Positions 40,401 to 46,400 of a DNA stretch of 64,000 bases are shown here, piece by piece. The stretch is from positions 1 through 64,000 of the forward strand of contig NIVC01000687.1 of NCBI GenBank assembly GCA_002269645.1, written 5' to 3'. The position numbers and the translations under genes were made by a program. Under the pieces are notes generated by a model. The model was not told the origin of the DNA and made no database searches. It worked only from the letters and a program-made list of their open reading frames with translations. Positions within the stretch are counted from its first letter, which is position 1; the number at the start of each line of letters is the position of its first letter. Origin of the DNA: Macrostomum lignano (taxonomy: Eukaryota).

Positions 40401-43400
40401 CGCACATTCTGCTGTCCCTGGAATTGGTACACTCGGAAGAAGACTCCTCGCAGGTCAGTCAGGGCGGTCATCACATCCTGTCGGGTCACTGGGGATCCGT
40501 CAATCGCTCGCAGGTTCTGCTCGTCCAGAGTCACCGAGTAGCGGGTCTCCGGTGCGCGCCTGGTAGTTCGGTCCCAGTATACCAAAGTTTGACCTCGCCA
40601 GCCCTGACGTCAAACCGAAATTATTCGAAAATAAAAATTTAAATTTCTCAACTTCCTACGCGAAAACAGTCAATTGATTACCTTTATTCCGAAAATCGGG
40701 AATGCAGTGTCCGCTCGAAGGCCCAGGTCCATTCGTACGTTGGCGCGGACGGTGAAACTGACCTTTCCGCCGTAGGCTGCCAGCTACGTGTAGAATGTTT
40801 GCGATCACGATTAGTTTTTCGGTTGCCTATTGCCTGGTTGCCACAGTCCACAGATAACTTGACATGTTTGATAGAAACGACATAATAACAAAAAATATCG
40901 CAACCAGGAGCACTATGCTTGACAGGTAAATGTAGACACCGCGGACAATACAGAGAGATCAGTTATATCGTCATGGGATTCCCTGAGTAGCAACATACAG
41001 TGTATGCACCACGAAAGCGAAAGTACGTTCAATCGAACAGAAAGCTATCAGTCGCCTCAAAACTTACACGCTTTCCTGACAGGCTAGTGAGAAAAACGTA
41101 TGAGTCATCGTCGTCTCGCAGTGCCCCCGAGCTGTCACCGGTCGGAGCGACGGAAAACTCCGGCCCGCTCTCCACCGTCAGCTTCTCGTTCGATGTGGAT
41201 TCCTCGTACACACCGAATAGACCCCAGCCCATGAGGCGGACGGATGAAGCATCAATGGGTGTAACTTGTTTCTGCGGTCAGTGACAGAATTTTATTCGAA
41301 TTTTATTCGAATTTTATTCGAATTTTACTCGAGCCTCATCGCAGCAAATATGAGCTAATCCAATTATTGGTTACCTCCTCAAAGAACAGGCCTGCATTAT
41401 TGCAGGCGTTGGAACGATCTGAGCAAAAGCAGGGCACGCAGCCATCAGGGTGGTCCTTCCTTAGACTGTGGTAACCCCGCTTGCACCTGTCACAGTTGGG
41501 GCCTTCTACGTTGGCCTGAAATTTGTTTAAAACAGTTTTACAGCTTACAGTTTGTTCTTTTCTAATTTTTGAAAAATTCTTTCTCCTTTGGATCTGCTTA
41601 AACTAAAGAAGCTATCGTTCCAGCAATAAATTTTCGGATTCACTGTGAATCGTAGAGGTCGGCTAAAGGTTTCGCAGCGTCACAACCAGTGCATGTACCT
41701 TCTAAATATACGCATCGCCTCTGTACGAAAGAACTTAAAGAAAAGAAGGAACCTATTCATCTATTTATTGTTCAACTGCGCTCATTACTTTATGTCTGCT
41801 ATTCGGTTTACTTAGTAGCAAGAATAAGAAGTTTCCCTGCTTCTGTTTCCCGACCTGACACCATTCACCCTGAATACTCAGAAGCTGGATTGTATAAATC
41901 TGAGATGCTGGGGCCAACGCACGCACCTTGCAATTGCAGACGTTGTTCTGGCACACGCCGCCAATGCCGCAGGTTTTGTTACAGTCGACTCCGGTGCCGA
42001 CTACAGTGAGCCAGTTTTCGTTGGATGCGTGCAATGCAGCGATTATTGTTAAAGATGTTATAAGTAATCGTTTATCTTAAAATAGTCAACTTTATATTTA
42101 TAGTAAGTGAATCCAAGTTTCCCTTCTAGAATTTTCTGTAACAGACTTTTAATCATATATCTATGGTCTCCGAATCCTAACCTGTACAACTAAGTTTTGT
42201 TTGAGCTACGCCAGAGCTAAATTCAATGTTAACCCCTTCTTTTGCTATCTTTCTCAAAACTCAATAAACGCCGATTCATTATAATTTAACCTACAGAAAG
42301 TGCATTGTCGTTTGACCACAGCGTGCAGGAATGATTTTTTCGATTTATTATCGTGCAGGAATGTCTGTGTCTATGGTAGAAATCACTTGACATACGTTAG
42401 CTTATCGTGCAGGAATGACTTCATTCCTGCACGATTTAACAATTTATTTTTAGAAGCAACTGAATATGTAATCAATAACAATATGGAAAAACATAAAGGA
42501 TAATAAGTGGAACTAGGGAAACAGTTAATGAGTCTATAGACCTACTCACACCCCTCTCGGCATTTACTCGAAAATAAACTGCACAACATTCGTTTCGCCG
42601 TTTGCCAAAATCTTCATCCGCTTAGTGGGGGCTGCTACAAGTGTGGTGGTCGATTCTTCAACAACCAGTGACTTCTTGACAGTTGACATTGACGCTGATC
42701 CGCACGGGTCGGTAGTCGCAACAGCCCTTGTAGGAGCGTCGCTCAGGGCGCACGGGTCGGTAGTTGCAACAGCCCTTGCAGGAGCTTCGCTCAATGTAGA
42801 ACTTGGTGCCGGCATAGTTCCAGCTAGAGCGACTGTCAGCTGATCACTCATCCCTGCCATGATCGAGTCCCTCTTCTTGCCTCTCCGGATGTATCGTTCT
42901 ACCGACGCGCTATTCTGTGAATAGAGGTGGTGTTTAATAAATTCCTTGTCCATGTGTCAATAAACTTACTAAGAATAAAGAATTGCTCACCTTGTGACCT
43001 GTCACCTTCGCAATTTTTTCGACAGAAAAGCCAGCTTCATGCAGCTCCGTAACAACTGTAGGTCGCACACAATGCGGAGTGTACAGCTTGGACAGGTTAG
43101 CATTCGAAGAGATCTTCTTGAGCAACGGCCCAAAGTGTTGATTCCAACTGGTACTTTGGTGTACCAGATGCCATCCGCATTCACTCGTGGTTTCGGACGC
43201 AGAAAGAAGTCCTCCTGATTCCAACCCGGCACGGCAGTAATTTTCGACAAATAAAGCTGGAAGGCCTGAACTGGACAGTGCCTTGACTCCGGCTTGGCCA
43301 CCATCAAGGCCTGTTTATTGTCGTCGCAGAGTCGCATGTCACTCGAGCCTTTTACATTCTTTGAGGTGCTGCCTTGCAACTCGATCGCCATAGCTCCGTT

Positions 43401-46400
43401 TGATAGGGCCTTCTCTCGGAATGAACGAACAGTGAGACCTCGTAGCCATTCTCTGCCGCGATTGCCGAAATAAAATAACACATTGAAATATACCTCTTCT
43501 TGCAAACGTGTTGGAGTGCTTCTGTCGAAGTAAGAAGCAAGCTTGACAAGGTCGTCCGACTCAATGGCTTCGTAATGCTGCACTCGACCACCGGACTTCA
43601 AATACGCATTGCAAACATTCTTCACCATCAAATTCGCGCTATGAAAAGCCTCGTGAGCGATGATATTGAGGCCACGTAATTTCATAAAGTACCTGAACAG
43701 TGCGGCTCGAATTCCTACGATTGTATTCGGCGAATAGAAGCTGCCGTCTGACTTACGCAGAGTCGCATAGAAGTAGCGGACCCATTTGGCAATTTCTTCC
43801 ACCGAAGCAGTCGCGTAATCCACTTTTAAATTATTCTCCGCCAACCAGGCCGTCAAGCGGTTGATCACAGCTTTCTCCTTAGAGACAGTCGAATGACATT
43901 CGTTGTCGCGTTCCAGTTGAGCGGCCAGACTTTCCAATTCGTCAAGGTTACACAAGGTTTCCGGATCCGAGCTGAAAAGTTTCTCTAATTCCTCGCTGAA
44001 CGTGCAATCCGCTATCAGTGCAGTCAAATCGTCGTCCGTCCTCTCAAAGTTGCTGGACACACTTTCAATAAACATTTCGTCGCCACTTAATCCAGACACC
44101 GTAGCGTAGCGAAAATCAATTAATGGAGGATTCAGAGCTGAGTCGATTACAGACGCCATAGTCAATAAGCTTTATACACTTTTCTATAAACTCTCCACTC
44201 AATTTTCATCTCTTCTTAACGTTTCTCGAAAACCGTGCAGGAATGACTTTGTCTATGGTCAAAAGACAATGATTTTCCTACACGCAAACTCGTGCGTCTA
44301 TGGCAAAATGCACTCGTGCGCTTCGCGCACTCGTGCTTTTGCCATTGACGCACTCGTTTTCGTGCAGGAATATTACATTTCTCGCCTCTTTCGCAGTCTC
44401 ATCCTTTTCCCGAGGAACAACAACTTCTATGGTAATTTATCGGTTGTAGGAGGACTGAGAACCATTTCTCAGTCCCCAAACGAGGCCTGATAAATAGGTC
44501 TCAGTCCTGCTATAAACAGTTGTATTTAACAAATGTAAACCAACAACAGGAAGTTCAAATAGTAAGATTTAGAAGCGTCTTGTAAGCACTCACTCAAAAA
44601 CGATTTCAACGGTGTTGGTGTTACCATTGATGTTAAGCCTCATTTTCTTTGCAGGATTAGCAGTCACTACGTTACTTTGTTCCATAGCTTCAACAGAGCG
44701 TTCAGGCTCGGTGTCAATAGACAGACTTGATGACTGACCACCAGATTGAAGAGCATGCGATACTTTAACATGGTCTTGTACATCAAACTGAATATAGCGC
44801 TCAATAGCTGTCGAAGAGTGTCCTGTAACACGAGCGATGTCCTCTCTAGCAAAGCCAGCACGGTGTAGAGTACTTGCGCAAGTCTTGCGTAGAGACTGAT
44901 TAGTGTACCTTTCAGTCACTCCAGTTAGGGGAGCCGTTAATTCACGAACAATACCGTCCAAGCTGTGCCGGCCGACGGGTGCGTTTTGGTACCACCTGCC
45001 TTGCTGGATGCTGGCATCGCTACGCATCCAAACCAGGAACAAATTCTGAACCGTACAGTTTTCCGGTCTTTTGTCCACATACAGCTTGTAGATGCAGGGT
45101 AGACATCTATCATGATCAGCAGTATGAGATGCTTTAACGGTTTTCAATGGAACAAAACGTCGCTTTATGCCAGCGTTTTTGGTCTTCGTGGCTCTGTTCT
45201 CACAGTAAACTAGAAGTTCTTGACCGTCTTCATGCTGCAACTGGATCTCACAGCTATATCTCAGACCATGCAGCTCCGTGCCTCCACGCAAAGCGAACTG
45301 CTTGCCAAGGTAGAACACAAGCGTAAACAGCAGTAATTTCGGCGACGTTGTTGCAAGACGTCCTTTCTGCCACAACTCCTCCTCCAGAGTTGCGGGAATT
45401 GGGCTAGACGCATTTGTCCCCGGAACTAGGCCCTCTCTAGTAGCTTCTTTCATGGCAGCATCCAATGCCATTCTTGCATCCCTGCACGCAGCGTCCTTCC
45501 AGAGATTCAGTTCTTTCTTGAGCGTGTACTGCAGATAGTGTTGCATCATGGAAAATATGTCCCTAAGGGTCGTAGCATTGTATTTAGTGCCATCGACTTT
45601 TCGCACCTCGAGAATGAACATCTTTAATAGATAGTTCCAATCGCAAGCGTTCCATTCATGACGCTCCTTCAACACGAGAAGGCCAGTTGTATCACCATGT
45701 AGAATTCGATTGTGTCGCTGCTCAAACCACTGGTCAAAAATTCTTACAGCCCATAGTTCCTTCCTTCGCGTATTTGGTGGGATAGCAGCGTCCAGCTTCC
45801 CTTGTATTTCGTCAGTCGAGAGCGTAGCGAATCGATCACTACCAGCAGCAGGGTTCGTTGCAGCGGATTCTTTACTTTCAAAATATCGTAGCACTAGATC
45901 TAAGTCGTCTTCCATGGTTCTATTATATATGCAAATTGATGGACTACTCAGTGCTCCATCTAGGTAGACGATTTATAACACTTTAGCCAGTCAGTCACAT
46001 AGCTTGTGCCATAGACTAACTGTACTGGATATTGATGCGTATTTTGCTTTCAGTAGGTTAAATATTTTCTCCTCCTTTTTCCAAATATGTCTATGGAAAA
46101 AGCCACACTGGGAAAAGGAGGAGAATGTATACTTAACAAGGCTTTCTCAATAATTATATACAATTCGATATGATTGAAAGGACTGTGTGTACGTTTTTAC
46201 GAGTACGAGCTATAACGAACGAGCGTTTGTACGAGCTAACTAGTGAGGAGGGCTTCAAGGTGCAAAGATACTCACTCTCAGTGATGACAAACTTCATAGC
46301 TCGGTAAAGGTTTGGAGATATTGCCGGGTCAGCAATGCAGAGATACGTTCCGTATTTGTTGGGATCGCTTCCGCTCAGAATCAAAAAGGAATCGTTTCCT

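Follow-up and report, generated by a model that had tools for sequence, protein, structure and literature searches.

The closest described relatives of the element considered here are the CryptonA transposons of animals (PMC3212892), among them the Glomhoppers (PMC13465315), with which it shares a single DUF3504 gene, a length of ~2 kb, an animal host, non-autonomous forms and the lack of a true target duplication. This element, YR1, lies in a window of 64,000 nt (the whole stretch of DNA that was analysed, in whose positions all coordinates are given) from contig NIVC01000687.1 of Macrostomum lignano (GCA_002269645.1). In the accessible part of the 2011 account, animal Cryptons are without terminal repeats and two of the eight CryptonA supplement rows seen read 'n.d.' (PMC3212892), whereas YR1 has defined ends, a target word and a conserved hairpin accompanied by an inverted copy of one end. 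The words 'hairpin' and 'circular' are absent from the text of the Glomhopper paper (PMC13465315). The best explanation of these features, and one that we place just on the probable side, is that YR1 moves as a folded single strand in a manner resembling that of integron attC sites.

Other eukaryotic systems show partial resemblance. CryptonF-1_cRei of Chlamydomonas likewise sets a short word against a degenerate target (CACCG/CAYCG) and leaves clean empty sites, and its copy number rises although excision is seen; it belongs to another Crypton group, and the available part of the paper describes no hairpin (PMC9977147). The Starships share a eukaryotic tyrosine recombinase, a 4-base word and a rare circle junction in reads, but are giant fungal elements with DUF3435, and 'hairpin' and 'single-stranded' are absent from the accessible portion of that text (bioRxiv 10.64898/2026.09.21.753150). 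According to the part available of a 2026 review, Crypton transposition is without experimental proof and a double-stranded circle is assumed (PMC13565253). No hairpin or single-strand route for a Crypton was found in the literature searched, which excluded Repbase Reports, Dfam and most subscription papers, where one may be described.

Integron attC sites, as far as the accessible text of PMC2727003 goes, have in common with YR1 a predicted folded single-strand substrate, a strand set by extrahelical bases and a point crossover. YR1 differs in being eukaryotic, in a putative site composed from two distant ends and an internal copy, in its blocks of sheared GA pairs and mini-hairpin apex, and in a recombinase other than IntI. 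It is not a member of the integrons: in place of IntI, attI and a cassette array there is a DUF3504 protein with a Cre-like fold in a self-mobile element. Folded single-stranded DNA is also the substrate of a tyrosine recombinase at attP of the CTX phage. Cre/loxP offers the closest solved fold, and a 32-bp palindrome in YR1 is lox-like, but the spacer of this palindrome is self-complementary and variable, and the real crossover proceeds without a shared 6-8-bp spacer.

Ends, copies and gene of the YR1 element

The element, its junctions and its gene are located as follows:
42304..44376, minus (gene strand): YR1 element, a CryptonA-type DNA transposon of 2073 bp, delimited by copy ends, an empty allele and a joint skipping 2073 bases
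42303..42306, plus: left junction word CATT, the C presumably from the target and ATT from the element
44376..44379, plus: right junction word CATT, the C presumably from the element and the last three bases from the target
42304..42321, plus: left end L (the 3' end on the coding strand), an invariant copy start and inverted repeat
42991..44159, minus: YR1 exon 1 (DUF3504), one base short near 43128
42915..42990, minus: GT-AG intron of 76 bp, skipped in a contig of run X10 and absent from protein P0001
42564..42914, minus: YR1 exon 2, which encodes the catalytic tyrosine (Y398 in P0001)

A search of a 764 Mb animal genome with positions 42100-44480, in which 40 of 481 candidates were scored, recovered about 30 YR1 copies that are 97-100% identical and begin at 42303. 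The flank changes at 42303 in all 25 left ends examined, and intact right ends fall at 44376-44379. At one locus (L031) contig C414 presents an empty allele, in which both flanks match at 99.9% over 2 kb and a single CATT replaces the element; it may represent either a pre-insertion or an excised state. An earlier note on this DNA had predicted such an allele, which indeed exists, although its deficit is 2073 bp and not the expected 1882; that note's more general proposal of a ~2 kb tyrosine-recombinase element with its gene between repeated motifs is upheld. Sequencing data were searched as assembled contigs, which drop rare forms, of four of the 24 listed runs (X1, X4, X15 and X10). These showed an intron-less joint and an empty joint with a skip of 2073 bases; the empty joint in X1 does not prove excision, as the many copies of YR2 (the element surrounding YR1 here) that never held YR1 match it as well.

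We regard the identity and ends of the element as practically certain. The YR1 family is a young CryptonA: it comprises near-identical dispersed copies with sharp ends together with non-autonomous derivatives, has a short terminal word common to element and target but neither a long terminal inverted repeat (TIR) nor a true duplication, and carries as its sole gene a DUF3504 recombinase with the R-K-H-R-H-Y set, with no reverse transcriptase. The assignment to this particular Crypton group is drawn from DUF3504 and the animal host. Two other delimitations were rejected, namely TATGG as a CryptonS-type end, as the TCTATGG copies of YR1 are internal, and a 19-bp TIR element ending at 44271, as intact copies and the empty allele extend to 44376.

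The YR1 protein matches PF12012 (DUF3504) above the cut-off, as does the neighbouring YR2 protein, the two being 23% identical. The copy in the window is dead, having a frameshift near 43128 and having lost its C-terminal catalytic residues. Exon 1 is open in nine of the 18 longest YR1 copies, two pairs among these having common flanks, and exon 1 of an intact copy has its best match, at 100% identity, in P0001, a protein of 506 aa labelled Macrostomum lignano. The intron precedes the catalytic tyrosine, and the contig from X10, a run guessed to be RNA, omits exactly its 76 bases. Across 32 aligned proteins (A1) R234, K267, H363, R366 and H389 do not vary and Y398 hardly does, and P0001 keeps the catalytic R-K-H-R-H-Y, unlike the domesticated ZMYM/KCTD genes. 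Other YR1 copies hold a spliced gene with an intact predicted catalytic set. The predicted structure (pLDDT 74.8) has Cre as its best fold match (E 1.4e-9, rank 1), with an integron integrase at rank 43 and the Tn1549 integrase also among the matches. The C-terminal tails of the YR1 and YR2 proteins (42567-42620 and 44593-44650) are similar; the model places a two-strand hairpin there, with confidence, behind a disordered linker.

Target word, upstream hairpin and inverted end copy

The comparison of junctions and hairpins involves these further features:
44253..44270, minus: L', an internal inverted copy of the left end lying directly inside the hairpin (19 nt, 89% complementary)
44271..44376, minus: imperfect hairpin of 106 nt with CGAG/CGAG loops at 44289/44353 and 44313/44330
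44320-44326, coding strand (minus): hairpin apex GCGAAGC
44375-44376, coding strand (minus): two extra bases (bulge) at the cut
42286..46136, minus: host element of YR1, a second CryptonA family with the YR2 gene at 44590-45915 and TTAA words at 42286-42289 and 46133-46136
431..650, plus: copy of an abundant 263-bp non-autonomous family with YR1-like end motifs and hairpin design

Junction words were counted at 44 insertions with unique flanks, 20 of YR1 and 24 of the 263-bp short family, and at 11 of YR2; loci in which the element end is not recognisable (L013/14, L018, L019, L022 and L043) were omitted. The search patterns for right junctions fixed C or CA, and the third base of the word is free of such filters. 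The left word is CATT in 42 cases and TATT in two, and the right word CATT in 32, CAGT in eight, CAAT in three and CACT in one. Hence the third base differs at 12 of the 44 right junctions and at no left junction, while the first base differs at two left and no right junctions within the filters used. YR2 insertions show TTAA on the left in 10 of 11 and on the right in two of 11, with no preferred preceding base. As the third-base mismatches lie 12:0 on the target side, insertion is at C^ANT by a point crossover with no shared spacer; were the cuts staggered across the word and the strands then split at replication, an arithmetic estimate gives the 12:0 distribution odds of about 1 in 4000. 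Indirectly, this asymmetry fits a single strand exchange resolved by replication. The short-family copy that is inserted at a CAAT inside L' of YR1 (44267) in L011, L012 and L017 also keeps the rule of a CATT on the left and a target word on the right. In the flanks of 55 insertions, TCTATGG has a density of 2.7 per kb up to 50 bp from the site and of 0.8 per kb at 800-1200 bp. The elements themselves contain it too (YR1, YR2, families C and D and the short family). A common host-factor or targeting motif is one possible explanation, a trace of insertion into other Cryptons another.

Upstream of the YR1 gene lies the hairpin, followed by L', the inverted copy of the far end. Circle junctions were modelled by joining the ends in a script, and their folding energies were compared with those of the integrated ends. 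In the modelled YR1 junction the stem runs across the joint, L' pairs, and the 2-nt bulge falls at the cut, so that an imperfect palindrome with its crossover in the stem, as in attC, is present in modelled circle junctions specifically. The energies of junction and integrated ends are -58/-47 kcal/mol for YR1, -54/-44 for YR2 and -60/-52 for the short family; across the three the modelled junction folds 8-14 kcal/mol better, with z about -10 to -13. These energies take no account of sheared pairs and do not distinguish one strand from the other, and the strand argument therefore rests on the sequence pattern. The coding-strand arm that begins at the cut has two bases more than its partner, and the opposite strand reads TC/TC and TTC. 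In the available parts of the respective papers, GCGNAGC and GCGNNAGC form extraordinarily stable DNA mini-hairpins, the RNA form of GCGAAAGC melting at 39 C against 76.5 C for the DNA mini-hairpin (PMC13037366), and CGAG/CGAG yields sheared G:A pairs (PMC10085684). We think it probable, with some confidence, that it is the fold of one strand that matters.

The YR1 hairpin is also fragile, as expected of a folding sequence: in 28 rows it is full in 11, deleted in 12 and partly flipped in five; by comparison, all 28 keep an unchanged control stretch at a distance of 90 bp (L032 repeats L011 in this set, and L017 is probably the same insertion).

The arrangement recurs beyond YR1. From 150 matches we took 30 loci for further DUF3504 families of M. 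lignano, and two such families have the same order of hairpin, inverted end copy, gene and end. The gene-less 263-bp family has the end motifs and hairpin design of YR1, and a right-end pattern with 166 matches mostly finds this family. L' and the two extra bases are present in all five M. lignano families with defined ends. They are equally present in all six metagenome relatives with an upstream hairpin (L118-L121, L123 and L124; 29-42% identity), which are the close relatives with upstream DNA among 23 metagenome loci and whose far ends finish in AAT like that of YR1. Here L' matches the far end at 15, 14, 15, 16, 15 and 13 of 16 positions respectively; the shuffled maxima are mostly 11-13, with 14 reached in four of 180 trials. 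Every one of the 11 cases whose ends are defined or inferred thus has the two extra bases.

Loops were tallied in 15 hairpins, the full-length ones picked by eye; for family C a copy with a downstream hairpin was used and the hairpin oriented by its own start, and the short family was oriented by its likeness to YR1. These hairpins contain 24 loops of the 2x2 type, of which 19 are GA/GA on the strand starting at the cut and none TC/TC, although the stems differ, and GCGNAGC or GCGNNAGC describes nine of 11 apices. Extrahelical bases and a strand asymmetry of the attC type are accordingly conserved, as the bulge and the loops show. A seventh metagenome hairpin of YR1 type occurs in L130; the idea that this locus is a permuted circle of L118 was rejected, as two different families stand there in tandem. 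Related elements are likewise joined end to end in L004, L009 and L020. In the family C copies of L090/L091 (2565-2690) and L093/L094 (2570-2680) the hairpin is reversed and downstream of the gene, which looks like a flip of the segment between end and inverted copy in one or two independent events.

Routes of movement

The best reading of the point crossover, the bulge at the cut, L' and the strand-specific folds is a folded-strand route, which would account for all four. On this route, the coding strand would first be exposed and its upstream end would fold, with L' able to pair with the AAT/ANT of either end. The recombinase would then cut the coding strand after T at both ends, the 2-nt bulge marking the strand, and one exchange would yield a circle with its junction in the stem. 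Finally the folded junction would undergo one exchange with a double-stranded target, to be resolved by replication, and the donor could remain. We give this route in its entirety an even chance. That animal CryptonA elements use a single-stranded, structure-specific site, with a synapse that one strand builds from both ends, L', the sheared-GA blocks and the mini-hairpin, and are copied out as a circle inserting through a single strand exchange, is a tentative proposal that falls a little short of even. A circular form of the YR1 element, as the earlier note supposed, is plausible.

Several observations weigh against the folded-strand route. No circle joint was seen in the contigs of the four runs, which through their loss of rare forms do not establish its absence. 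The YR1 fold is nearer to Cre than to the integron integrase, and Starships integrate from synthetic circular DNA, according to the part of the preprint available (bioRxiv 2026.09.21.753150). The hairpin is deleted or flipped in 17 of the 28 rows, most of which still have the correct end, and identical deletions occur at different loci (L003/L015, and 221-222-bp short forms at five loci). Given these recurrent deletions the inner stem may be dispensable, and full stems may be unneeded if the shared deletions moved after arising. In the flipped copies the coding strand has TC/TC, but every one of these copies is damaged as well. Only six of the 23 metagenome loci have the full design; no such hairpin was found in the long upstream DNA of the more distant L126, L127, L128/129, L133, L134 and L137, and in L128/129 a hairpin lies downstream instead, its coding strand reading TC/TC. 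The families are moreover related, and the counts drawn from them are not independent.

The strongest competitor retains the same element and ends and has them move by the classical Crypton route, in which a double-stranded circle recombines at a short word without needing homology. The hairpin would then have a different one-strand task, for instance in priming, as a cruciform that is extruded or in a promoter, and L' would be no more than an additional binding site. The published model, in the accessible parts of PMC13565253 and PMC9977147, is this classical route, and mini-hairpins do occur at priming and promoter sites in the part of PMC13037366 available. It would also sit well with the recurrence of damaged hairpins at several loci and with the presence of the Tn1549 integrase among the fold matches. 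It leaves unexplained why L' abuts the hairpin with a stem spanning the junction and why the surplus after the cut is exactly two bases in all 11 cases, and its staggered cuts should give a left-hand target base in about half of the insertions, against none of 12 observed. We consider this route, along with the roles it gives to the hairpin and L', a serious candidate but on balance unlikely.

It is much less probable that the palindromic end arose neutrally, through fold-back repair and conversion between its arms, and plays no part in movement. Arms are visibly converted or flipped in young copies, and matched changes could so arise without selection; such conversion would, however, erase the mismatches and the bulge, whereas elements whose proteins are only 23-42% identical, as well as the gene-less 263-bp family, have kept GA/GA, the GNA/GNNA apex and the 2-nt offset.

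Whichever route operates, the locus supplies, for a young, spliced and intact family of a laboratory flatworm, ends exact to the base, a rule for the target and a conserved fold of one strand, and the mechanism is open to test with short oligonucleotides and one protein. If the folded-strand route is correct, eukaryotes would possess a counterpart of integron attC recombination, with an integron-like recombinase able to insert at a 4-base word and no double-strand break. Such a finding may also be relevant to the Eulor repeats of vertebrate genomes, which derive from Cryptons. One-strand copy-out would also explain the copy gain of active Cryptons, as it appears in the available part of PMC9977147.

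Subterminal motifs and neighbouring elements

A set of repeated motifs lies inside the element:
42352..42377, plus: left 26-bp repeat, with subterminal CGTGCAGGAA and TCTATGG, 48 bp inside the end
44234..44259, plus: right 26-bp repeat, subterminal and overlapping L'
42404..42435, no strand: 15-2-15 palindrome of two inverted CGTGCAGGAA, internal and not an element end
42322..42331, plus: subterminal CGTGCAGGAA motif
44361..44370, plus: CGTGCAGGAA on the outer arm of the hairpin, separated by 6 nt from the crossover, with its partner at 44275-44284

The earlier note had reported 26-bp direct repeats 1882 bp apart and additional CGTGCAGGAA half-sites at 42322 and 44361, all of which are exact and in place, as well as a 12-8-12 palindrome at 42404-42435, which is real and correctly positioned but has perfect arms of 15 bp around two unpaired bases, 12-8-12 being one possible parsing. 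Exact CGTGCAGGAA matches stand at 42322, 42352, 42406, 42424 (minus), 44234 and 44361, to which we add a one-mismatch match at 44275 (minus) that the note lacked, as it did the true ends (42303/44376), the 106-nt hairpin, L', the intron and the frameshift. With up to one mismatch the window holds 18 matches against 3.6 expected, a number reached by none of 100 shuffles, and they cluster at 42322-42433, 44234-44370 and 449-785. The 26-bp repeats and the palindrome are repeated subterminal motifs within the element. As one copy is 6 nt from the crossover, recombinase binding is a fair guess, and CGTGCAGGAA may be a putative recombinase binding motif; on the folded-strand route the repeats and palindrome would be accessory binding sites.

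The same note took these repeats or the palindrome for the crossover sites, with excision of an 1882-bp circle. Copies in fact begin at 42303 and intact ones stop at 44376-44379, the mapped copies end elsewhere, and no fetched copy ends at the palindrome. A genome pattern spanning both 26-bp repeats and their possible recombinants matched 64 places, of which 32 are left repeats, 31 right repeats, one belongs to another family and none is a recombinant. The contigs of X1, X4, X15 and X10 contain no 42352/44234 joint, a result that in contigs losing rare forms does not amount to absence. Among 27 YR1 copies the palindrome is intact in 24, has a flipped spacer in one (L016) and is altered in two. 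In control 32-mers near it at least three bases differ in four of 24, one of 26 and none of 28 copies, and as this variation is similar, change in three of 27 is not clearly raised. The fixed asymmetric 6-8-bp spacer of a Cre/lox-type site is missing, as the form is 15-2-15 and the spacing varies among relatives (arms 12 nt apart in a related element at 752-785, closer in the 263-bp family), and in place of a crossover within the spacer the element ends 100 bp away. Although its motifs are real and far above chance, and a partial copy on C452 breaks inside the palindrome, the crossover-repeat model is hardly credible, for it is already contradicted by the genome in the lack of recombinants, the position of the ends and empty allele, the unconserved spacer and palindrome changes close to the control level.

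Template switching at quasi-palindromes can flip palindrome centres and hairpin segments. Inversion by the recombinase was rejected for the flip in L016, as such switching accounts for it and for the hairpin flips. The partial copy on C452 belongs to locus L033 (G000:C452), where two deletion derivatives stand head to head, one of them breaking in the right arm of the palindrome and joined via a short-family fragment. Directly after the 263-bp copy, a remnant of a related short element at 651-1020 has the palindrome at 752-785 and a partial hairpin arm at 960-1020.

YR1 is inserted in the YR2 element, 17 bp from its end, and this copy of YR2 is without the inner part of its own hairpin. The whole forms a nested trio at 42044-46151, with YR2 in turn inserted at TTAA ~15 bp from the end of a ~250-bp repeat that has further copies in L035-L037. 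Elsewhere in the window, 7200-19463 holds what we take to be a broken Polinton/adintovirus-like block (integrase, protein-primed polymerase, protease, ATPase and capsid-like frames), and 1030-1753, 2456-5593 and 25096-26667 presumably represent piggyBac-like and copia-like frames, the copia-like apparently inside the piggyBac-like.

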